Part shown: in pieces, positions 8,285 through 38,552 of the stretch | How the letters are laid out: every line of letters starts with the position of its first letter | Numbering within the stretch: position 1 is the first letter of the stretch | From: Candidatus Latescibacterota bacterium | GTDB lineage: Bacteria > Latescibacterota > UBA2968 > UBA8231 | DNA length: 64,000 nucleotides | Direction of reading: 5' to 3' | Assembly (NCBI GenBank): GCA_965208105.1 | Contig: OZ242318.1 | Coordinates: 32,001-96,000, forward strand | Translations under genes and position numbers: made by a program | The notes under the pieces: generated by a model | Told to the model about the DNA's origin: nothing | What the model saw: only the letters and a program-made list of their open reading frames with translations | Database searches by the model: none

Positions 8285-8285
<1 letters not shown>
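8124..8285. mobile_element. 162-bp nested-palindromic MITE-like element, copy 1, bounded by CTAG at both ends
   Basis: Imperfect terminal inverted repeats GTGTTCCGCCGCAGAGATA / TATTTCTGCGACGCAACAC; matches the reverse complement of 37613-37774 with about 8 differences by eye. Confidence 0.8.
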
Positions 8286-9757
<1,472 letters not shown>

Positions 9758-9940
9758 CTAAAGGCTCCTTGGTTGAAAATATGGAGTGGGTGAGGACAAC
9801 CACGGGCGGCGCCGTGCATTCCCTTGCAGGATGATGACTTCAGCGTTGACGCCGCCCATTTTGTCGAAGGTTCGCTGTCGATCCCTTGCGGCAGGGGATA
9901 TCTCACCATACAGGTCTGCCGCTTCATCTGAGAAAAATCT

Positions 9941-27718: not shown

Positions 27719-28153
27719 ATGAGTGATAGAACCTACATGCCCAGGAAAGTAGAAATCGAGCGTCAGTGGTTTGTCGTGGATGCCAGGGATGAGATACTTG
27801 GCCGATTGGCATCGGAGATTGCGCGTATTCTTCGTGGTAAACACAAACCCTGGTATACGCCCCATGCCGATATGGGCGACCACGTAATCGTGATCAACGC
27901 CGACAAGATCAGGGTCACCGGCCGCAAGGCCGACCAGAAAGTTTACTATCGCCACACGGGATATGCGGGGGGCATCCGTTCGACCTCGTACAGGGAGGTC
28001 ATGGATAAGCATCCAGAGCGCATTCTGCGCAAGGCAATATGGGGCATGTTGCCGCACAACCCTCTGGGACGCATGATGTTCAAGAAGCTCCGGGTCTATG
28101 CCGGGGATAAACATCCCCACGAGGCCCAAAAGCCTGCAGCATTGGAATTCTGA
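27719..28153 (+). CDS. rplM: 50S ribosomal protein L13
   Basis: LGRLAS, GKHKPWYTPH, GMLPHN, HPHEAQ. Confidence 0.97.
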   Translation: MSDRTYMPRKVEIERQWFVVDARDEILGRLASEIARILRGKHKPWYTPHADMGDHVIVINADKIRVTGRKADQKVYYRHTGYAGGIRSTSYREVMDKHPERILRKAIWGMLPHNPLGRMMFKKLRVYAGDKHPHEAQKPAALEF

Positions 28154-28179
28154 ATTGATATCGAGAGGTTTCGGAACTT

Positions 28180-28569
28180 ATGGCAGAAACATTTGAGGCG
28201 ACCGGAAGAAGGAAGACCTCGGTGGCTCGCGTGCGCCTGCGTCTGGGAGCTGGAGACATCTATATCAACGGGCGAAGCGCGAATGACTACCTTCGCCGGG
28301 ATGCACTGGAGATGATACTGGTGCAACCCCTGCAGTTGACCGAGACCCGCGATCGATTTGATATTCACATCTCCACCAAGGGCGGTGGTTTGAGAGGTCA
28401 GGCCGGTGCTGCGTGCCTCGGAATTGCCCGCGCCCTAATCCAATTTGATCCCAATGTGAGAAATTCATTGAAGAATGCCGGCTTTTTGACCCGCGACCCG
28501 CGCGAAAAGGAACGCAAAAAGTATGGCCTGGCCGGCGCGCGCAAGCGCTTTCAATTCTCGAAGCGTTGA
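28180..28569 (+). CDS. rpsI: 30S ribosomal protein S9
   Basis: [30 protein letters not shown]. Confidence 0.97.
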
Positions 28570-28589
28570 TTTATACCAGGTTTTCTTAT

Positions 28590-28695
28590 CCCACCCAATT
28601 TTCGCCAGGACCTAGGGGTATTCCCTCGGGCAATCAAGGAGGGGATTCTGCGCCTGGTTTTGGAAGGTGACGGCTTGACAATCTCATAACAGGGA
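28590..28695 (+). promoter_or_regulatory. Probable rpsB (S2 autoregulatory) leader RNA
   Basis: Intergenic stem CACC..CCAGG..GGGGT..CCTGG..GGTG ahead of rpsB resembles the S2 leader layout. Confidence 0.4.
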
Positions 28696-28702
28696 ATTGG
28701 CA

Positions 28703-29455
28703 ATGGTTGATTGTTCCATCCGCGATCTGCTGGAGGCTGGGACTCACTTCGGGCACCAGACCCGCAGATGGGATCCCAAGATGAAGCAGTACATCTTTAC
28801 CGAGCGCAACGGGATACACATAATCGATTTGCAAAAGACCCTCAACAGGCTGGAAGAAGCCTATCAAGCCGTGCTTGAGACCTCCCAGGCAGGGGGAACG
28901 GTTCTCTTCGTAGGTACCAAGAAACAGGCCGTCGACATCGTTCGCCAGGAGGCCGAGCGCTGTGGCATGTTCCACGTCACCGAGCGCTGGTTGGGAGGGA
29001 TGTTGACCAACTGGCAGACCATCCGACAAAGCATTCGCCACCTGGACCATCTCGATCAAATTTCCACTGACGGCACTTATGAAAAATTGAAGAAGAAGGA
29101 GGTCCTGCTCCTTGAAAAGGAGCGCGATCGACTTGGCAAGACCCTTGCAGGAATCCGGAAGATGGGAGGCCTGCCGGGGCTGGTGTTCATTGTCGACATC
29201 AGGAAGGAACATATCGCCGTGCTCGAAGCACAGAAGCTGAGGATTCCCTCGGTCGGCCTCATCGATACGAATTGCAATCCAGAAGCTGTCACCCACCCCA
29301 TTCCCGGCAACGATGATGCCCTGCGTTCCATCAGCCTGGTCGCACACCTGATGGCCGAAGCCGTTCTGGAGGGCAAGGCCAAGGCGAGCGAACGCGAGGA
29401 GGCCGAAGCCGGTGATGCTGAGGAAAAACAGGCTGAAGAGGTCAGTGCCGATTGA
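28703..29455 (+). CDS. rpsB: 30S ribosomal protein S2
   Basis: LLEAGTHFGHQT, FVGTKKQA, RWLGGMLTN, IPGNDDA. Confidence 0.97.
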   Translation: MVDCSIRDLLEAGTHFGHQTRRWDPKMKQYIFTERNGIHIIDLQKTLNRLEEAYQAVLETSQAGGTVLFVGTKKQAVDIVRQEAERCGMFHVTERWLGGMLTNWQTIRQSIRHLDHLDQISTDGTYEKLKKKEVLLLEKERDRLGKTLAGIRKMGGLPGLVFIVDIRKEHIAVLEAQKLRIPSVGLIDTNCNPEAVTHPIPGNDDALRSISLVAHLMAEAVLEGKAKASEREEAEAGDAEEKQAEEVSAD

Positions 29456-29507
29456 TGGTTGGTGGAATAGACCTGTAGCTCTTGCAATTGATCGGAATGG
29501 AAATGAT

Positions 29508-30110
29508 ATGGGTGTGATTTCGTCAAAGTTGGTAAAGGAACTCCGGGACAAAACAGGGCTCGGAATGATGGATTGCAAAAAGGCGCTTCAGGAAACGGCC
29601 GGCGACCTTGAAAAGGCGGTCGACTACCTGCGCAAACAGGGGATGGCTGCCGTCGAGAAAAGGGCTGGGCGCGTCGCTCGAGACGGATTTATCACCTCCT
29701 ATATCCATCCCGGGAGTCGTCTTGGGGTCCTGGTTGAAATCAACTGCGAGACCGACTTTGTCGCCCGCACCGAAGATTTCCAACAGTTCGGCAAGGATGT
29801 GGCCATGCACATCGCAGCCTCTCGTCCCCTGGCGATTGGCCGGGAGGACCTGGATCCGGAACTGCTGGAGAGGGAACGCAATATTTACGAAGAAAGGGCG
29901 AAAGACGAAGGCAAACCAGACAACATTGCCGAAAAAATTGTCTCGGGACGACTCGAGAAGTACTTTCAGGATGTCTGTCTGCTCGAACAGGCATTTGTAA
30001 AAAATCCAGACCAGACAGTCCAGGACCTTCTGGTTGAGCTGACGGCCAAGATCGGCGAGAAAATAATCATCCGTCGCTTCTCCTGTTTCCGCCTTGGAGA
30101 GGAGGAGTAG
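29508..30110 (+). CDS. tsf: Elongation factor Ts (short form)
   Basis: VKELRDKTGLGMMDCKKAL, EINCETDFVAR; about 200 aa. Confidence 0.96.
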   Translation: MGVISSKLVKELRDKTGLGMMDCKKALQETAGDLEKAVDYLRKQGMAAVEKRAGRVARDGFITSYIHPGSRLGVLVEINCETDFVARTEDFQQFGKDVAMHIAASRPLAIGREDLDPELLERERNIYEERAKDEGKPDNIAEKIVSGRLEKYFQDVCLLEQAFVKNPDQTVQDLLVELTAKIGEKIIIRRFSCFRLGEEE

Positions 30111-30145
30111 GGAAGGACGCGGTTTCAGCAGGATGTTCGGGCCCC

Positions 30146-30706
30146 ATGATCGACGAAATCATTCAGGATGTAATTCAACACATGGAGAAGGCCGTTGAGG
30201 CCCTGCGACGGGATCTGGCCTCCATTCGGACGGGACGGGCTTCAACCGCGATGTTGTCCGCAATTCGCGTCGATTACTACGGGAGTTCCACTCCGCTCAA
30301 TCAGGTGGCAAACCTCAGCGTTCCCGAACCCCGCATGATCACCATAAAGCCTTGGGAACAGAATTTGATTCCGGTGATAGAAAAGGCAATCCGATCGGAC
30401 GGCAAGCTTGGCCTCAACCCCTCCAATGATGGGACCCTTATCCGAGTTCCCATACCCGAGTTGACGGGAGAACGCCGCCGCGAGATCAGCAAGGCAGCCC
30501 GGCAGCGAGGGGAGGAGGGCAGGGTAGCGGTGCGCCATGCCCGGCGGGAGGGGATAAGCCTCATCGAGTTGTCGAAAAAGGAAGGGGAGGTATCCGAAGA
30601 CGAGGCACGCCAGGCCCATACCCGGATTCAGAAACTCACCGACGAGCACGTAGGCCAGGTCGATACGATCGTTGAAAATAAAGAAAAGGAGATCATGGAG
30701 GTCTGA
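30146..30706 (+). CDS. frr: Ribosome recycling factor
   Basis: IRTGRAS, VDYYG, LGLNP, KEKEIMEV. Confidence 0.96.
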   Translation: MIDEIIQDVIQHMEKAVEALRRDLASIRTGRASTAMLSAIRVDYYGSSTPLNQVANLSVPEPRMITIKPWEQNLIPVIEKAIRSDGKLGLNPSNDGTLIRVPIPELTGERRREISKAARQRGEEGRVAVRHARREGISLIELSKKEGEVSEDEARQAHTRIQKLTDEHVGQVDTIVENKEKEIMEV

Positions 30707-31044
30707 GGTCTAGCGTCTCTTGGCGAACGGACGCCAGGCGGAGCGCCTGGAAAGGTTCCTGAGGCGGTTTGTCTCCTCGAAGATAAGCCGTTTTTTCGTT
30801 CTGGAGGGATTTTTCTACCTTCACAACCGGGGCGGTCGATCTACCTGGCTCGAGGCTTTGCAGGGTAGGTTCCTTGCCTCTGGTTCCCGAAAGCCGGGTT
30901 TGAACCTTCCCGCCTGATTATCACCGAAATGCGCGCCGGATATCGTTCAGATTCGAATAAGGCTCTCTCCTCCATGGCGGTCTCTTCCTTCAATTAAATC
31001 CATCCTCCCGATCAAACAGGCGTCTGGGTCCAAGGAACAAGGGA

Positions 31045-31920
31045 ATGCTATTTCACATCTTGCGATCTATGCGTCCGAGGCATTGGATCAAGAATGCCTT
31101 CGTCTTTCCAGCCCTCGTATTCTCTGGACATCTCTTCGAGCCGGATTATGCAATTCGTTGCCTTGGCGCGGCCGGGTGCTTTTGCCTCCTGAGCAGCGCA
31201 ATCTATCTATTCAACGACCTCTTCGACGCTGAGCGGGACCGTCTCCACCCGGAAAAATCGGAGCGACCCATCGCCTCCGGCCGGTTGCCTGCGCCCATAG
31301 CGGCTGCCGCGGGCGCTATGCTGCTCGCCCTGGGTCTGGTCGGTGCTTTTTTCGCCCATCCTCACTTCGGCAACGTGGGCCTCGCATACGTGGTGCTGAA
31401 TCTGGCTTACTCCTTCAAATTGAAGCAGGTGGTGATCGTCGATGTGCTGATTGTGGCTCTTGGATACCTGCTTCGGGCAATGGGGGGAGGTATGGTCCTG
31501 GAGGTAACCATTTCCACCTGGTTTATTCTTTGTTCCTTCATGCTCGCCTTGTTTCTGGCGGTGATAAAGAGAAGGCAGGAATTGGTCGGGCTGGAAGAAG
31601 GGGCAGTCGCGCATCGGATCATCCTGAAGGAATACAGCGTTTCCTTTCTGGACCAGGTCGTATCTGTGCTGACATCAGCCACACTTGTATGCTATGCTCT
31701 ATACGCCATGGGAGTGGGGGAGAGTGGGGCCGCCTATGCTCATCGGATGCAATGGACTATTCCCTTTGTACTTTATGGGTTTTTGCGATACCTGTACCTG
31801 GTTTACCAAAAGGGGAGCGGTGACAATCCTACCGCTGTTGTTTGGAAGGACCGGCCCTTGCAGATCAATCTGGTTCTGTGGATGGCGGTTAGTACAATGG
31901 GAATTTACGTGCTGCCGTAG
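31045..31920 (+). CDS. UbiA family decaprenyl-phosphate phosphoribosyltransferase-like protein
   Basis: MRPRHWIKN, NDLFDAERDRLHPEKSERPIASG, KRRQEL. Confidence 0.85.
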   Translation: MLFHILRSMRPRHWIKNAFVFPALVFSGHLFEPDYAIRCLGAAGCFCLLSSAIYLFNDLFDAERDRLHPEKSERPIASGRLPAPIAAAAGAMLLALGLVGAFFAHPHFGNVGLAYVVLNLAYSFKLKQVVIVDVLIVALGYLLRAMGGGMVLEVTISTWFILCSFMLALFLAVIKRRQELVGLEEGAVAHRIILKEYSVSFLDQVVSVLTSATLVCYALYAMGVGESGAAYAHRMQWTIPFVLYGFLRYLYLVYQKGSGDNPTAVVWKDRPLQINLVLWMAVSTMGIYVLP

Positions 31921-31947: not shown

Positions 31948-34452
31948 TCAATGGGCTCCAATCAAAGGGATGCCCGTCGCCTGGGAGGTTGCCAAGGTGA
32001 TGGACCGTAGATCCTCGGGTTCGAGGCTGTGAATATTGGTCTTGCCGACACCACGCGCCATCATCGATGCCTCTCCGGAACTGGCGGTTAAAAAATTCAG
32101 TGCAGATTCGAGGTATTCCTCAATCGTGTAATCCGCCGAAAAATGCATATGGTTGCGGTCGTCAATTCTACCTCCCATGGCCAGGGCGACAGAGACGCTC
32201 ATGATCACTGACTGGCAGCCCAATGCAATGGCCTTTGCGGCATCTGTTCCAGACCGTATCCCCCCGAAGTAAACGACGTTGATCTGTTCCTCCATCCTGG
32301 AGGTTCGCAGGGACGCGATGGCGTCGCGCAGAACCGTTAAATCGAATCCGCACGCCAGTTCCGGCCATGGTTCTTCCAGCCTTGCGCTTCCATCCAATAC
32401 AATTATGTCACAGCCCTGATCGATTGCCCATGGAACTGCGTCACTAATTGTGTCGGAACTTGCCGAGACGCCGAGCAATTGGTCCTCCCTCCCCCGAACC
32501 AGATCGGCCCGGGAAGTGGTCTTTCCCAGGGTATATACGAGGCCTGCGGCATCTGCGCTGGGGTCCCCTCCCGACGGGGGGATCAACTGCATCCAGGGAG
32601 TCTCGGGGCCAAGTTGCCTTGCACCGAGATAGGCACAGCCGCTTCTTTTTATGGCCTCGGACAGGCCCAGTTTGATTTCTTCCGGTGCGCGGTCAAAACC
32701 GGTGATGAGAAAAGGAGATTCAAGCTCAAGCGAATGCCCAATCCTGGTCTGCATCTTGCATGCCTCGCGGTACGGGTCGATGACCAGGCGCGACAAATTG
32801 GCGGGCAGCAGATGGATGTCGTCAAGCATGGCGCCTCTGTCCCCGGGAAATGGATTCTGGCGATTGGCCAGGCGCTTGTTCAGCATGGGGACGTGTTTGT
32901 GCGCTTGCTCGGGACGCGTTCGGGCCATTATGAATATATCTTCGCGGGTGTTGACGGAATATTCGTGCGTGCCGTTTTCCGCGTCGCACCGTAGACAACG
33001 CGCCGCTTCCTCTCTGGCCTGTGGGAGAGTGTAGGTCGTCTCGATTTCGGGAAATGCGAGGGGATCTTTGCCCAGCCCGTGAAATGGTTGGTCAACCCTG
33101 TTGAAAATTTCCCACTCAGGGTCTTGGGCTACCGGAACCCGCCTGGTGCGATAGGGCGTGCTGTACGGCATCGGGTCGCTTCTACCTTCGAGAAAGGCCT
33201 TGATGTAGTAGGCAGCCCGGTGCCCAAGGTACATGGCATTGACGATGGTCGAAGGTCCGAAGGCTCCGTCTCCGGTGGCAAATACCATGCGGTCCTCAGT
33301 GGCCGTCGTCTCATGGTCTGCACGGATGCGCTCGTTCGCCATGAAGCCCATCTCTTCGAGTTCTTCGTTTTCGGCCTTCTGACCGACCGCGGCAATTACG
33401 AGGCCGCATTCGATGTCGTGTTCGGAACCTTCCACCATAAGGGGTTTTCTTCTACCATCCGCTTCGGGATCACCCATCACCGTCTTCAAGCAGCGGATGG
33501 CGGGAGGAGCATCGCGCCCTGGTATCCCCACCGGTTGAGTATTGTAGATGAACTCCACCTTTTCTTTGACGGCTCCTTCAAGTTCGTCCCGGCGGGCGGG
33601 AATTTCCATGGGGCTGCGACGATAGAGCACTTTTACGTGCCGGCATCCTGGAAGGCGCAGGGCAGCGCGGCAGGCGTCCATTGCCACATCCCCGCCTCCC
33701 ACGACGACCACGGTTTCTGGCATCCGTGGGCGTTCGCCGCTGTTTATTCGCCGCAGAAAGGATACCCCGTCGACTACGCGAGGGCCGCATTCTCCAGGTA
33801 TGCCCATTTTCTTCCCCCACCATGCACCGATTGCAAGGAGGACCGCGTCGTGTTTCGATTTCAATTCTTCCAGGGAGATGTTCTTCCCGAGAGCGTGGTT
33901 GAAATGGACCACTATGCCGGGACAGTGATTCAGTATCCGGTTGATGTCCTCGTCGATGATTCTGGGCGGAAGGCGAAATGCGGGTATCCCCCAGACCATC
34001 ATTCCGCCCAGTCGGTCGGACATTTCGTAGACGTGGACCTCGTACCCGGCCTCGGCAATATCCTGCGCGGCCGTCAGCCCGGCGGGACCGCCTCCGACAA
34101 TGGCCACTGTCTCGTCACGGGTGACTTTAACCGGGGGTAGGTGGAAGTCGGGTCCCAGCTTGTCCATGACGAAGCGCTTCAGGTTGCGAATGGCTATCGG
34201 TCCGTCGCTGTCGGCTCTGCGGCACGCAGGTTCGCAGGGAGCGTCGCAGACGCGTCCGCAAATCGAGCTGAAGGGGTTGGTGGCCGAGATGGCTTCCAGG
34301 GCTCCGACAAAGTTTTCTTCCCAGATATAACCTATGTAGGAAGGTGCATCGGTCCCTATGGGGCACGCTACCTGGCAAGGCGCGGGCACAAAGTGCAGAT
34401 CGGAAGTATCGTCCAGTAGTTCGATGGGAACGAAAGAGGCGGGGGCGCTCAT
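31948..34452 (-). CDS. GltD/NfnB-like FAD/NADPH Fe-S oxidoreductase fused to a degenerate glutamate-synthase FMN-barrel domain
   Basis: PCQVACP, CGRVCDAPCEPAC, GGGPAG, GGGDVAMD, EAARCLRC; C-terminal GGIRSGTDAAKAIALG...LEPEDLRSIT. Confidence 0.8.
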   Translation of the reverse strand: MSAPASFVPIELLDDTSDLHFVPAPCQVACPIGTDAPSYIGYIWEENFVGALEAISATNPFSSICGRVCDAPCEPACRRADSDGPIAIRNLKRFVMDKLGPDFHLPPVKVTRDETVAIVGGGPAGLTAAQDIAEAGYEVHVYEMSDRLGGMMVWGIPAFRLPPRIIDEDINRILNHCPGIVVHFNHALGKNISLEELKSKHDAVLLAIGAWWGKKMGIPGECGPRVVDGVSFLRRINSGERPRMPETVVVVGGGDVAMDACRAALRLPGCRHVKVLYRRSPMEIPARRDELEGAVKEKVEFIYNTQPVGIPGRDAPPAIRCLKTVMGDPEADGRRKPLMVEGSEHDIECGLVIAAVGQKAENEELEEMGFMANERIRADHETTATEDRMVFATGDGAFGPSTIVNAMYLGHRAAYYIKAFLEGRSDPMPYSTPYRTRRVPVAQDPEWEIFNRVDQPFHGLGKDPLAFPEIETTYTLPQAREEAARCLRCDAENGTHEYSVNTREDIFIMARTRPEQAHKHVPMLNKRLANRQNPFPGDRGAMLDDIHLLPANLSRLVIDPYREACKMQTRIGHSLELESPFLITGFDRAPEEIKLGLSEAIKRSGCAYLGARQLGPETPWMQLIPPSGGDPSADAAGLVYTLGKTTSRADLVRGREDQLLGVSASSDTISDAVPWAIDQGCDIIVLDGSARLEEPWPELACGFDLTVLRDAIASLRTSRMEEQINVVYFGGIRSGTDAAKAIALGCQSVIMSVSVALAMGGRIDDRNHMHFSADYTIEEYLESALNFLTASSGEASMMARGVGKTNIHSLEPEDLRSITLATSQATGIPLIGAH

Positions 34453-34459
34453 CTTCTCG

Positions 34460-36439
34460 CTAATCGAATCTCTCCGCCAGGAGCGGTTTCAACTCTGTGA
34501 AGGGCTTTGGCTTCCTTCCAAACTCCGGGGAGAAGGGCAGCCGGGTAATTCTTGCTGCCTCTGGGGTAAGAGCCACCAGGTCACGCCGAGAAAGCTGGCG
34601 AAAATCGGCATATCCCAGGCCCTTGACAACGGCGGCCAACTGCCAACGGATATTTTCGAGAAAGTGGTGGATATTTCGGGCTTCGACCGGGATATTGTAG
34701 CGCTTCTCGTGTTGCGGGTCCTGGGTGGCAATTCCCACGACACATGTTCCCACGTGGCACTGCATGCAGGAGATGCATCCTCCGGCGATTATGGCCGCTG
34801 TGCCAACAGCGGTGGCATCCGCCCCCAGGGCCAGTGCCTTGGCAACATCGATGCCGTCCTTGATGCCGCCCATCAGGACGATGGGGAGCTCTCCTGGCCG
34901 CTCGATTTCGGCGAGAGCGTCGACTGCTTCCTGGATTGCGGCCAGGGTCGGTATGCCTACGTATTCCAGGACTTCCGAGCTGGAGGCGCCTGTGGATCCC
35001 TGAGATCCGTCGAGTTCTACGAAGTCGGCGCCTGACTTGAGTGCGATCTTGATGTCGTCGCGCACGCGGCCAGCTCCCATTTTGAGGCTTACGGGCAATT
35101 TATATTCGGTTGCTTCCCTGAATTCTTCAATTTTGATGACCAGGTCGTCCGCCCCGAGGATGTCCGGATGGCGGGACGGGGACCTCAAGTCGATCCCCTG
35201 TGGAATGCCTCGAATGGCCGCCAGCTCCCTGGTGACTTTTTTGGCCATGAGCTGACCCCCGAAACCTGGTTTGGCTCCCTGAGATATATAGATTTCCAGG
35301 GCATTGGCGCGCCGCATGTCATGGATATTCCAGCCCAGCCTTCCGCCGAGGCATTGCATGATGATCTGGTCGGCCTCCCGCCTTTGCTCGTCGGTCAACC
35401 CCCCTTCTCCCGTATTTTCCGACGTGCCGGAAAGCCGCGAGGCAATGGCAAGTGCCACCTTCGTGGACTTGCTCAAGGCGCCATAGCTCATGGGAGCAAT
35501 CATCACCGGCATACTCAGCGACAGGGGGATCGCTCCGTTTTTTTCTCCAATTTGGGTCCTGAGATTGACTTTTTCCAGCAAGTCCGGATCGGTGCCGGCC
35601 TGCGACAGGTCGTGCTTGAAGGCGAGGTCCGAAAAGTGCGGCAGTGGCCGCGATGCGCCGTAGCCGCGGATGCGGTATCGACCGATCTGGGACTTGATGA
35701 ATATGTCCTCTTGAACCTTTCTGTTCCAGTAGTCGGCTTTGCCTGAGAAGGTAAAAAACGGGATCGGCCGGGTGCGTGCTTCGTCTCCCTTATAGCGCAG
35801 TTTTTTGCCGGCGTTCACCACCTTCTTGAATGAACCGGTGAAGGGAATTTCCTGCTCATCCAGAAATTCCAACACCGCGCTGCACTCATCCTCGGAGATT
35901 TCCGCCTGTTTTGCATCCGTGCCCAGCGACTGTATCTTGCCGCCGACGTAAATTTCCCCCCCGTGCATGTCCTCGCCGATCTTCTCTCCCGAATCCCCGA
36001 GGATGATCACTCGTCCTCCATACATCATGTATCCCGCCATGAAGCTGGCGTGGCCGGCGCAGCAGAGAGTTCCGGCCTTCATCACCTGCCCGGCGCGCGA
36101 TCCGAGGTTCCCCTTGACCACAACTGTTGCGCCGCGGATCGCAACGGCGGCAATGGTGCTGGCATTGCCATTGACGACCACCGTGCCTTCATAGACGTTG
36201 TCGGCCAGTCCCCATCCCGCGTTGCCGTCTACTTCAAATCTGGCCTTGTCTGATAGACCTGCACAGAAATAACCGGCGGATCCGCGGATGCGCACGGTAA
36301 TTGGAGAGAGAAGGCCGACGCCGATGTGGTGGCGCGCATCGGGGTTGAGCACTTCGACGTCGTGGCCCAGCGATCCAAGCTCTCTGATCTTCTGGTTGGC
36401 GTCTCTGACGCTCAACTCGGTCAGATCTACTTGGACCAT
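34460..36439 (-). CDS. Glutamate synthase GXGXG domain (GltB3/GlxC-like) fused to an FMN/3Fe-4S domain (GltB2/GlxD-like)
   Basis: N-terminal beta-helix with GQVMKAG/GYMMYGG/GEDMHGG repeats; MSYGALS, NTGEGG, QGAKPG, SPSRHPD, CISCMQCHVGTC.VGIATQDP. Confidence 0.88.
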   Translation of the reverse strand: MVQVDLTELSVRDANQKIRELGSLGHDVEVLNPDARHHIGVGLLSPITVRIRGSAGYFCAGLSDKARFEVDGNAGWGLADNVYEGTVVVNGNASTIAAVAIRGATVVVKGNLGSRAGQVMKAGTLCCAGHASFMAGYMMYGGRVIILGDSGEKIGEDMHGGEIYVGGKIQSLGTDAKQAEISEDECSAVLEFLDEQEIPFTGSFKKVVNAGKKLRYKGDEARTRPIPFFTFSGKADYWNRKVQEDIFIKSQIGRYRIRGYGASRPLPHFSDLAFKHDLSQAGTDPDLLEKVNLRTQIGEKNGAIPLSLSMPVMIAPMSYGALSKSTKVALAIASRLSGTSENTGEGGLTDEQRREADQIIMQCLGGRLGWNIHDMRRANALEIYISQGAKPGFGGQLMAKKVTRELAAIRGIPQGIDLRSPSRHPDILGADDLVIKIEEFREATEYKLPVSLKMGAGRVRDDIKIALKSGADFVELDGSQGSTGASSSEVLEYVGIPTLAAIQEAVDALAEIERPGELPIVLMGGIKDGIDVAKALALGADATAVGTAAIIAGGCISCMQCHVGTCVVGIATQDPQHEKRYNIPVEARNIHHFLENIRWQLAAVVKGLGYADFRQLSRRDLVALTPEAARITRLPFSPEFGRKPKPFTELKPLLAERFD

Positions 36440-37332
36440 GTAAAGTAGGTTCCTGGCAGAGGCTCGGTGGTGGCGATCATCTCGCCGGGGAACAATCTGT
36501 TCAGCGAGACCTCTTCTGATGCGATAGCGACTAGTTGGTCCGTCTCGTACATCACCATGGGTTTTGCAGCAAGCTGGTCCTTTGCAAAGCCCAGTTCGTT
36601 CCCGGTTGAAACCAGAAAGGAAAAGGTCCCATCGAGTTCCTCGATGCTGGCGGACAGCACTTCCTCCAGAGGCATCCCGCGCGACAATTGCTCGGCCAAA
36701 AATACCGCGATGAGTTCGCTGTCATTGTCGGTTCTGAATTCGAACTCCTTGCTTTCGAGGGCTCGCCTCATTTTCCAGTAGTTGGTTATTTGCCCATTGT
36801 GGACAATGGCGATATCGGCAAAGCCGGTAGCCCAGAAGGGATGGGCGGCCTCGGGTTCGACGTTGGATTCGGTGGCGAGCCTCACGTGGCCGATGCCGTG
36901 GGTTCCGAAGGAGTTCTGCACGTGATAGCGCCTGTCCACCGCGTGTGCGTCGCCGACGTCCTTGATTATTTCCAGACTCGAGCCAATGGAGATGACTTTT
37001 GCAGCTCGTTCCAGAGCATAGGAAAACCTTTGCATGTCGCCAGTAAAGATCACGGTTACCCGGTAATTACTCTCGATGATCTCGTCCCGGACAATGGTGG
37101 CATTGTATTCCCTGAGGACGTTCTGTATGCAGCCGACGGCATCGAGATCCCCATGGCCTTCTCCAATGAGAAACCGGAGTATGTACTGATCGGTTGCAGG
37201 CTCGCCATAGATTGCAAACCCGGTGGAATCCCTGCCCCGATGCTGGCACCCGTAGAGCATCTGAACAAGGGCTTTGCCGACGTCGTGCTTGTCTCTAGCG
37301 CCTTTGTAGAAGATTCCGGCAATGCCACACAT
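36427..37332 (-). CDS. Stand-alone class II glutamine amidotransferase (GltB1/GlxB-like)
   Basis: MCGIAG start, QHRGRDSTG, GHVRLATES, HPF, VHNGQITN, DSE. Confidence 0.88.
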   Translation of the reverse strand: MCGIAGIFYKGARDKHDVGKALVQMLYGCQHRGRDSTGFAIYGEPATDQYILRFLIGEGHGDLDAVGCIQNVLREYNATIVRDEIIESNYRVTVIFTGDMQRFSYALERAAKVISIGSSLEIIKDVGDAHAVDRRYHVQNSFGTHGIGHVRLATESNVEPEAAHPFWATGFADIAIVHNGQITNYWKMRRALESKEFEFRTDNDSELIAVFLAEQLSRGMPLEEVLSASIEELDGTFSFLVSTGNELGFAKDQLAAKPMVMYETDQLVAIASEEVSLNRLFPGEMIATTEPLPGTYFTWSK

Positions 37333-37774: not shown

Positions 37775-37796
37775 TGATTATGGTTGGATGTCGGAT

Positions 37797-37872
37797 TGGT
37801 GGAGCAGAGCGGGATCGAACCGCCGACCTCAGGCTTGCAAAGCCCGCGCTCTCCCATCTGAGCTACTGCCCC
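37797..37872 (-). tRNA. tRNA-Ala(TGC)
   Basis: GGGGCAGTAGCTCAGATGGGAGAGCGCGGGCTTTGCAAGCCTGAGGTCGGCGGTTCGATCCCGCTCTGCTCCACCA; cloverleaf, G3:U70, encoded CCA. Confidence 0.97.
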
Positions 37873-38153
37873 ACCTCATTTCACCGGTGGATTTCCGAAT
37901 GTGCCATCCGTACTGGGCGGAAAGGAATTCAAGGATTGGACTTGCCCGCGGCTGGGTGCCGGGGCGGAATTTGTAACCTTCTGAGCAACCTTCTTATGGA
38001 GGCTTCCAATGAGGTAAAAAATAGTTATAATTCAGGACCGAGTCAATTTACTTTGGGGCATGGACACCTGGTTGAGTGGTGTCGGAGTACGCCTGTGGCG
38101 ACCTGCGAAGGAATGAAGGCCGCACTTCCGGACCATGGCGCCGGAAGCGGGAA

Positions 38154-38552
38154 TCAGGCGATTTCCAGATCCTCTTCGAGGGAGTCTTCCACTTCCGTTG
38201 CCGCCTGGCTCTTCTCCAGAAGCTGGAGGCTTCGGACCTGTATTTCAACCAGGGAATGATGACGGTCCTCCTCATCTCTCCAGCTGTGGCTGCGAAGACG
38301 GCCAGCTATGAATACCGCGGTTCCTTTGCGGATGCGTTCGGCGTAGTACTCGGCCATTTTTTGCCAGAGCACTATATTGAAAAAGGAACTCTCTTCCTGC
38401 CACTCGCCATTGCGTTGGCGGTAGGAGCGGTTGACAGCTAGTCGGGCGCTTAGCCTGGCAACCCCATTTTCGGTAAGCCGAAATTCGGGATCCTGGGCCA
38501 GCCGGCCACTGAGAGCGATCTGGTTGATGGTTGGCATGCGCAGTTTGGACAT
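38154..38552 (-). CDS. ssb: Single-stranded DNA-binding protein
   Basis: INQIALSGRLAQDPEFR, LAVNR, FFNIVLW, GRLRSHSW; GGAGG RBS; short tail without DIPF. Confidence 0.9.
   Translation of the reverse strand: MSKLRMPTINQIALSGRLAQDPEFRLTENGVARLSARLAVNRSYRQRNGEWQEESSFFNIVLWQKMAEYYAERIRKGTAVFIAGRLRSHSWRDEEDRHHSLVEIQVRSLQLLEKSQAATEVEDSLEEDLEIA

Follow-up and report, generated by a model that had tools for sequence, protein, structure and literature searches.

A three-gene operon of the MgsABC/glutamate synthase superfamily with a built-in reductase and a degenerate FMN barrel in a Latescibacterota genome

The window analysed here, a 64,000-nucleotide stretch of contig OZ242318.1 from a Candidatus Latescibacterota bacterium, contains a three-gene operon that is real, intact and widespread, and that belongs to the superfamily of N-methylglutamate synthase (MgsABC) and glutamate synthase (GOGAT); it carries its own reductase and a pseudo-barrel that probably acts as an adaptor. 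It encodes an amidotransferase (301 aa), a synthase subunit in which a GXGXG domain is fused to a flavin mononucleotide (FMN) and iron-sulfur (Fe-S) barrel (659 aa), and a third subunit (834 aa) in which a GltD/NfnB-like module is followed by a second, degenerate barrel (Table 1). Based on homology and genome context, the operon probably encodes a reductase-coupled enzyme of the MgsABC/GlxBCD branch, of an NAD(P)H-driven gamma-glutamylmethylamide:2-oxoglutarate type.

An earlier note, made from the sequence alone, had placed three tightly packed genes here, and all three open reading frames (ORFs) were found at those positions. The Pfam mapping agrees with the division of domains that it described, which was a class-II glutamine amidotransferase (GATase-II), GXGXG plus FMN/3Fe-4S, and a GltD-like module plus barrel. 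The genes for the 301-aa and 659-aa proteins overlap by 13 nt, while a spacing of 7 nt separates the latter from the gene for the 834-aa protein. No NCBIfam model matched any of the three proteins at its cut-off, and promoter and terminator scans gave nothing exceeding the shuffled expectation.

Table 1 Genes and domains of the operon (positions are those of the window; Ntn, N-terminal nucleophile; AF2, AlphaFold2).
Feature	Position	Strand	Details
Amidotransferase gene	36427-37332	minus	301 aa, N-terminus MCGIAG, MgsA/GlxB-like class-II (Ntn)
MgsB::MgsC-like synthase gene	34460-36439	minus	659 aa, GXGXG beta-helix + FMN/Fe-S barrel
GXGXG domain, residues 32-175 of 659-aa protein	35915-36346	minus	PF01493, 57.8 bits
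Intact FMN barrel, residues 280-610 of 659-aa protein	34610-35602	minus	PF01645, E 8.5e-94
Reductase-adaptor gene	31948-34452 (stop codon included)	minus	834 aa, GltD/NfnB-like module + degenerate barrel
GltD/NfnB-like NAD(P)H:Fe-S reductase module, residues 24-491 of 834-aa protein	32980-34383	minus	Fer4_20 + Pyr_redox_2
Degenerate MgsC-like (beta/alpha)8 barrel, residues 509-834 of 834-aa protein	31951-32928	minus	Profile alignment, AF2, Foldseek

The 301-aa protein matches GATase_6/7 in Pfam, is 33-43% identical to MgsA from the canonical mgsABC clusters of relatives and is encoded by the sole GlxB-like gene that tblastn found in its own genome. Cys2, which is the N-terminal nucleophile after removal of Met1, is invariant along with 48 further positions in 63 family members and six canonical MgsA sequences. 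The FMN barrel of the 659-aa protein aligns with the GltB FMN domain (hhalign probability 99.8%) and carries the motifs ENTGEGG (341-347) and QGAKPG (387-392) as well as a cysteine cluster (C555/C558/C561/C566). These two motifs, GxTGA, GG..DG.D and the four cysteines are invariant in 62 sequences. When compared with the separate subunits of relatives, the 659-aa protein is 30-43% identical to MgsB and 40-44% identical to MgsC. No second copy of the operon's GXGXG domain was found in the genome by tblastn, and Pfam gave no match to the GltB central domain (PF04898) in the operon proteins.

The reductase module of the 834-aa protein (Fer4_20 at residues 24-98, Pyr_redox_2 at 115-408) carries the cysteine motifs for two [4Fe-4S] clusters and the Rossmann folds for flavin adenine dinucleotide (FAD) and NAD(P)H; C26, C30, C65, C69, C73 and C77 are invariant in 121 sequences. 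Its matches in the PDB include 9bov_A (E 6.3e-94), NfnA 9n5u_A (1.1e-91) and GltD 2vdc_G (1.6e-63), while the TIGR01318 and TIGR01317 scores of the 834-aa protein are under their cut-offs. The AF2 model of the full-length protein has a mean predicted local distance difference test score (pLDDT) of 84.2, and in Foldseek it matches the GltD-like modules of NfnABC/StnC, NfnB, GltD and dihydropyrimidine dehydrogenase (DPD). Beyond the GltD Fe-S motifs, C486 and C489 (in C-x-R-C-D, 486-490) and C565 (after LVIDPYRE) are also invariant in the 121 sequences; their codons lie within 32758-32997 of the window, and neither a metal site nor a disulfide could be proposed for these residues.

Although degenerate, the second barrel is a genuine homologue of the FMN barrel. 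The earlier note had named the absence of such homology as one of the findings that would overturn its proposal, and the relation was found: a profile of 121 family members aligned with the FMN domain of the neighbouring subunit with a probability of 98.1% (hhalign, E 1.1e-13, 154 columns), and a relaxed profile alignment covered the whole barrel over 295 columns. With the barrel as query, tblastn found the stand-alone MgsC-like FMN proteins of relatives (down to E 8e-23), its own partner reaching only 7e-5. Pfam matches in the C-terminal half of the 834-aa protein are weak (PF01645 at 708-764, whose 20.4 bits just equal the cut-off, and FMN_dh at 719-761), and across the family barrels PF01645 is matched in 56 of 75 and FMN_dh in 70 of 75. 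The AF2 model of residues 515-834 is confident (pLDDT 90.3, predicted template modelling score 0.88); its Foldseek matches are FMN-dependent (beta/alpha)8 barrels, namely those of flavocytochrome b2, glycolate oxidase and type-2 isopentenyl diphosphate isomerase (TMq 0.56-0.61).

The motifs that had been quoted from the second barrel are present, GGIRSGTDAAKAIALG at residues 730-745 and LEPEDLRSIT at 810-819 of the 834-aa protein, and the motif loss that had been reported is borne out: the 659-aa protein retains the cysteine cluster, NTGEGG and QGAKPG, to which nothing in the barrel corresponds. The segments of the active barrel that lack a counterpart are ENTGEGG, QGAKPG, a loop of ~65 residues, GxTGA and the four-cysteine cluster. 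Of the functional motifs, the barrel has kept only GG.RSGTD..K, a loop of the flavin-phosphate type. In a quick tree of 42 rows (barrel, operon FMN, MgsC and GltB FMN domains) the barrels form one clade on a branch of 2.21 whose position is not fixed, and the operon FMN domain groups with GltB, a placement flagged as a possible long-branch artefact, so that no conclusion on origin was drawn from it.

The suggestion that the barrel replaces the GltB central domain was rejected at the sequence level, as hhalign against 27 GltB fragments gave a probability of 0.8% and PF04898 was matched in none of 75 family members. When the FMN and central domains of GltB were compared with each other as a control, hhalign likewise found no relation (0.3%), so sequence methods are unable to settle a purely structural equivalence. 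GltB chains are absent among the Foldseek matches listed for the barrel model.

A complex was predicted between the barrel (62-row alignment) and the full-length 659-aa subunit (also 62 rows, taken from the same loci). The interface score ipSAE was 0.80, 0.82 and 0.79 in three runs and 0.00 in each of three controls; of 80 solved complexes 58 reach the mark for this score, as do 2 of 110 mismatched pairs, counts that are only a rough guide here because custom alignments were used. The model has ~251 contacts, of which at least 87% agree between runs, and a pLDDT of 86 for the partner. On the barrel side, the predicted interface includes the LPANLSRLVIDPYR segment, which is invariant, and the GG.RSGTD..K loop that the barrel has kept (residues G731, R733, G735, T736 and K740); LPANLSRLVIDPYRE is a barrel segment within this predicted interface. 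On the partner side it includes the linker before the FMN domain (230-285), the QGAK flank 385-393, residues 419-433, 452-507 and 528-530 and the C-terminus. The partner's cysteine cluster (555-566) lies outside the predicted interface and would stay free for a reductase. The 78-residue predicted interface includes 23 of the 43 invariant residues of the barrel (Fisher p 8e-6).

Natural fusions point in the same direction. A profile search with the barrel against 1.84 billion representatives matched 1151 proteins at E<=1e-3, of which 371 reach 1e-10 and 110 reach 1e-30. The best 150 contain two natural fusions, P0286 (1031 aa, found on three contigs), in which GXGXG, FMN domain and barrel are fused and the reductase module is absent, and P0283 (1486 aa, one contig), in which the domains of both larger subunits are all in one chain. 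Stand-alone barrels of 324-327 aa, including P0185, P0236 and P0146, on contigs of up to 2.05 Mb, begin at a Met equivalent to M509 and may be either real split forms or gene-calling artefacts. Met509 itself (codon at window position 32928) is invariant in 121 sequences and lies just past a low-confidence linker (pLDDT <50, residues 491-507); its codon may be the fossil start of a once-separate barrel gene, or an internal start. Frames of 1313 and 1536 aa in two relatives, considered as further fusions, were rejected as overlapping open frames in GC-rich DNA. The model and the fusions together suggest that the main partner of the barrel is the synthase subunit and that the barrel is a modular docking piece, and they lend support to the earlier proposal that it docks the NADPH module.

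The same conserved residues bear on a different explanation, in which the second barrel still binds flavin or another phosphorylated ligand and provides a second catalytic, electron-relay or regulatory site. The GG.RSGTD..K loop is invariant in 121 sequences, and a profile search of the PDB with the barrel alignment returned only FMN oxidases and inosine monophosphate dehydrogenase over the beta7-beta8 loop, the closest being FMN oxidases over exactly GG.RSGTD; Q622 and Q658, at strand ends of the barrel, are invariant in a 25-sequence alignment, and the invariant C486, C489 and C565 are unexplained. Against a ligand site, the ENTGEGG, QGAKPG and GxTGA segments and the Fe-S cysteines are lost or replaced, ~65 residues are deleted, and the retained loop lies in the predicted protein-protein interface, a position that would explain its conservation without a ligand. 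A ligand-binding barrel appears, on this evidence, quite improbable.

The three-gene architecture is not rare and is widespread in uncultured bacteria. Among 7999 candidates scored, 5621 relatives of the 834-aa protein were found at E<=1e-3; the best 120 are 823-873 aa in length with 59-96% identity and 98-100% coverage. In the databases they carry no more specific name than 'FAD-dependent oxidoreductase' or 'glutamate synthase beta subunit-like oxidoreductase', and a search for cultured hosts gave MAG labels and generic names alone. When one genome per species was scanned with a pattern, a relative was found in at least 453 species genomes, and the best 80 of these, all metagenome-assembled genomes with Latescibacterota closest (84%), were used for locus comparisons. 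Their hosts include Latescibacterota, Gemmatimonadaceae, Alpha- and Gammaproteobacteria, Acidiferrobacterales and Burkholderiales, as well as Planctomycetota, Lentisphaeria, Kiritimatiellia, Opitutales and Acidimicrobiia. Clustering of the neighbouring ORFs was noisy owing to spurious GC-rich frames and was replaced by targeted tblastn searches.

The 834-aa GltD-like::barrel subunit is encoded in the operon at all 80 loci. The amidotransferase gene is present at 67, the other 13 all being cut by a contig end, and at each of the 67 the order is amidotransferase, GXGXG-FMN and reductase-barrel on one strand, with a 1.7-kb gap ahead of the reductase-barrel gene in L036. The earlier note had put the architecture forward as distinct, which is supported, and neither a description nor a test of it was found in the open literature searched.

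The surroundings of these loci suggest a role in methylamine metabolism. A gene resembling glutamine synthetase (GS) was detected in the flanks of 24 of the 80 loci (TIGR03105, for example 676 bits), and of the 66 loci for which at least 2 kb of downstream sequence is available, 18 have it directly behind the operon on the same strand. Genes like soxA (mgd) are present at seven loci, each with the GS-like gene as well, and soxB-like genes at five; L026 has soxB on one side of the operon and soxA on the other. In the gamma-glutamylmethylamide synthetase of Rhodovulum (RhGmaS), Ala replaces the ammonium-binding Asp50' of GS and Trp replaces the GS flap Glu, according to the accessible part of the report (PMC7948447). 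All ten RhGmaS active-site residues are present in each of the 24 operon-adjacent GS-like proteins and in each of six encoded in canonical clusters.

An enzyme for other substrates was considered in this context, acting on other gamma-glutamyl amides or amines (ethylamine, alkylamines or polyamine-derived) or mainly oxidatively, as a general NAD(P)-linked N-alkylglutamate enzyme. In three of the 80 loci (L008:12526-13830, L043:12605-13909 and L069:7562-8866), on the opposite strand, a second, divergent GS-like paralogue adjoins the GmaS-type gene; it has seven of the ten RhGmaS residues, with Ala48' changed to Thr, Gln175 to Ser and Asn188 to Asp, and may be a ligase for another amine. The diverse neighbourhoods, which include taurine-dioxygenase-like and LarA-like genes, also fit a broader substrate range. 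With the full RhGmaS methylamine-site set in every adjacent ligase and mgd-like genes co-occurring, such a general role is highly improbable.

The distribution was also compared across 41 genomes, which comprise the operon's own genome and its kin. The full barrel was found in 13 of these (45-100% identity), and all 13 have a GmaS-type gene. A further ten genomes with a GmaS-type gene all have stand-alone MgsC-like proteins. Among the 18 genomes without a GmaS-type gene, 17 have neither barrel nor MgsC-like protein and one (G023) has an MgsC-like protein only. In six of seven regions from the MgsC-like group, MgsA, MgsB and MgsC are encoded together with gmaS and soxB/soxA, and in the seventh (G040) only an FMN-domain gene and the ligase were seen. 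No GATase, GXGXG or FMN gene was found around gmaS in the 13 regions from 12 of the operon genomes and G012; ten of these have soxB, soxA and gmaS, two are cut by contig ends and one (G010) has only a soxG-like piece by gmaS. This complementary distribution suggests that the operon and canonical mgsABC stand in for each other within one pathway context.

The operon's own genome (4.85 Mb in one contig, C1; completeness 93.9%, contamination 8.1%) has candidates for the other pathway components. A GmaS-like gene at C1:1123372-1124676, 1.09 Mb from the operon, scores 594.9 bits with TIGR03105 (cut-off 469.6) and follows soxB-, soxD-, soxA- and soxG-like (mgdABCD-like) genes, with no mgsABC in this cluster. 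Against solved structures, its product scores 430.8 bits with 7cql (GmaS) and 408 with 9qur (glutamate-methylamine ligase), true GS reaching at most 283. The earlier remark that no gmaS or mgd genes are adjacent is thus true for the window and misleading beyond it, as the genome has the cluster and a GmaS-type gene flanks the operon in 24 of the 80 loci. A glnA-like gene at 8285-9814 (minus strand) of the window, a 490-aa frame, has a 1530-bp copy at C1:3406974-3408503 that is 99.0% identical, and both copies have an equal, sub-threshold TIGR03105 score; they represent either a recent GlnA-type duplication or an assembly/binning artefact, considering the contamination estimate. A third Glu_synthase gene at C1:2547203-2548102 (plus strand; 357-aa frame, PF01645 E 1.2e-72) forms a long branch in the tree, and tblastn found no GXGXG or GlxB-like partner for it.

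The genome also contains a canonical gltB, a 1555-aa open frame with PF04898 and PF01645 at C1:~3.091-3.093 Mb, with a GltD-like gene directly downstream. With canonical gltBD elsewhere in the genome (C1:~3.089-3.094 Mb), the operon is not the sole GOGAT of the organism. Of the two functions offered in the earlier note, a distinct glutamate synthase and an NADPH-coupled amine-transfer enzyme, the second fits best given the kinship with Mgs proteins and the gmaS/mgd context.

In a rival explanation, the operon would provide an additional NAD(P)H glutamate synthase that uses glutamine, as a GOGAT isozyme for ammonium assimilation that might serve in particular nitrogen regimes, the link with GmaS being incidental or due to shared nitrogen regulation. 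All the cofactor modules of GOGAT are present, PuuR-like regulators occur near 15 of the 80 loci, and in the window the operon lies among housekeeping genes. Ammonium-transporter genes adjoin the operon in 18 of the 80 loci, which fits plain ammonium assimilation too, and gmaS is absent from the fetched flanks in 56 of the 80 loci and from the window. By contrast, a GltB central domain, and with it canonical gltB, is present in 41 of the 41 genomes, the subunits resemble MgsABC, the operon occurs among these relatives only with a GmaS-type ligase and alternates with canonical mgsABC, and the adjacent ligases lack the ammonia-binding Asp and flap Glu of GS in 24 of 24 cases. A GOGAT isozyme is therefore considered unlikely.

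For the reductase-coupled Mgs-branch enzyme, we infer the amide donor, NAD(P)H as reductant, N-methylglutamate as product and a cofactor-free barrel from homology and context. In the proposed mechanism, the distant GmaS-type ligase would convert methylamine and glutamate to gamma-glutamylmethylamide. The 301-aa amidotransferase would hydrolyse the amide at Cys2 and pass methylamine on to the FMN/Fe-S barrel of the 659-aa subunit, where the amine would add to 2-oxoglutarate and reduced FMN would reduce the imine to N-methylglutamate. NAD(P)H would be the electron source, and the FAD and two [4Fe-4S] clusters in the GltD/NfnB-like half of the 834-aa subunit would be the route. The degenerate barrel, presumably no longer redox-active, would clamp the catalytic face of the active barrel and anchor the reductase, and might also close the active site or the path of the amine. 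MgdABCD-like proteins would then convert N-methylglutamate to glutamate and a one-carbon unit. The net reaction would be that of GOGAT with methylamine replacing ammonia. A more specific version, which we put forward tentatively and hold to be somewhat doubtful, is that the operon encodes the physiological NAD(P)H-dependent gamma-glutamylmethylamide:2-oxoglutarate methylaminotransferase, so that N-methylglutamate synthesis can be a true analogue of the GOGAT reaction with a defined electron donor. In this version the dead barrel would be a pseudo-enzyme subunit that pairs face to face with the active one, forms part of the closed active site or amine path and recruits the reductase. It would also be a modular adaptor, found in evolution as a separate protein or joined to the reductase, to the synthase or to both of them.

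Several observations weigh against the assignment to the Mgs branch, including the ammonium transporters, the loci without flanking gmaS and the invariant loop and cysteines of the 834-aa subunit described above. The GmaS-like protein of the operon's own genome has nine of the ten RhGmaS residues, with Ala at the Gln175 position. The 41 genomes are kin and so the complementary pattern rests on few independent events. The complex between barrel and 659-aa subunit is a prediction that solved glutamate synthases could have biased. Comparison of the barrel with the GltB FMN domain (27 GltB fragments) gave an hhalign probability of 0.1%, that is no relation, so the homology of the barrel is visible only through Mgs-type barrels. 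Lastly, a reductase is not obviously required, because canonical MgsABC formed N-methylglutamate in Pseudomonas putida without a dedicated one, as described in the available portion of PMC6237917.

Methylamine is a common source of nitrogen and one-carbon units in the sea, and the accessible part of one study reports gmaS in ~23% of surface-ocean microbial genomes (PMC7948447). If the proposed function is correct, the nitrogen of methylamine would be assimilated into glutamate without the release of ammonia. The built-in NAD(P)H reductase offers a testable answer to the question of the reductant of N-methylglutamate synthase, at least for this branch. Predictions of methylamine use keyed on mgsABC alone would miss organisms that carry the operon. 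The degenerate barrel would then be a clear example of how a catalytic domain can be reused for docking.

Around the operon, a tRNA-Ala (TGC) gene lies at 37797-37872 of the window (minus strand), on the same strand and 465 nt upstream, and a 159-aa ORF that covers it (37780-38259, plus strand) is probably spurious. Downstream, on the other strand, the region 27719-31920 appears from a by-eye reading of the translations to contain housekeeping genes, the candidates being rplM, rpsB, tsf, frr and a UbiA-type prenyltransferase. The GC content is ~0.57-0.59 over the operon and 0.55-0.56 at 28-32 kb of the window. The operon is not in an obvious island, since housekeeping-like genes flank it downstream.

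Among known systems, the closest is MgsABC/GlxBCD (EC 2.1.1.21; Methyloversatilis, Methylobacterium and glxBCD of SAR11), with which the operon shares all three modules (30-44% identity to canonical copies in relatives) and the lack of the GltB central domain. Like MgsABC, it is associated with gmaS and mgdABCD, and in some clusters it takes the position of mgsABC. It differs in that MgsB and MgsC are fused and in the addition of the 834-aa reductase/degenerate-barrel subunit, no such partner having been described for MgsABC. The redox cofactor of MgsABC is stated to be unidentified in the available portion of PMC6237917, with NADH, NADPH and reduced ferredoxin as candidates.

Judged by homology, the operon would follow the same cofactor logic as GltB/GltD (EC 1.4.1.13; Azospirillum 2vdc and 6s6s), in which NAD(P)H, FAD and two [4Fe-4S] clusters of a GltD-like protein precede the Fe-S/FMN barrel, with GXGXG and an Ntn amidotransferase. 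Unlike in GltB, the corresponding domains of the operon are split over two genes in another order, there is no central domain, and the amidotransferase is of the GATase_6/7 instead of the GATase_2 type. In the archaeal glutamate synthase, the GltB domains are likewise split over several polypeptides; it is not known to have a GltD-type subunit or a reductase-barrel fusion.

The reductase module is nearer to those of the NfnABC/StnC type than to GltD (E 6e-94 versus 2e-63) and, in the operon, has the pseudo-barrel fused to it. The GltD-like modules of NfnABC/StnABC (9bov, 9n5u and 8oh5) are the best matches to residues 24-491, with 35-39% identity to 9bov and 9n5u. Residues 102-565 of StnC are a non-bifurcating, NADPH-binding GltD-like domain according to the accessible text of PMC10482914. 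The attached domains and partners differ in the operon, in which nothing suggests bifurcation.

DPD (1h7x) was the sole solved structure in the searches with a GltD-like module and an FMN-type triosephosphate isomerase (TIM) barrel in one chain, and Foldseek aligned it over ~920 columns. Sequence identity is 16-18%, however, with a root-mean-square deviation of ~21 Å, and the domain arrangements are not superposable. The barrel of DPD is an active FMN domain similar to dihydroorotate dehydrogenase with its own Fe-S domain, whereas the barrel of the operon is degenerate and of the MgsC type.

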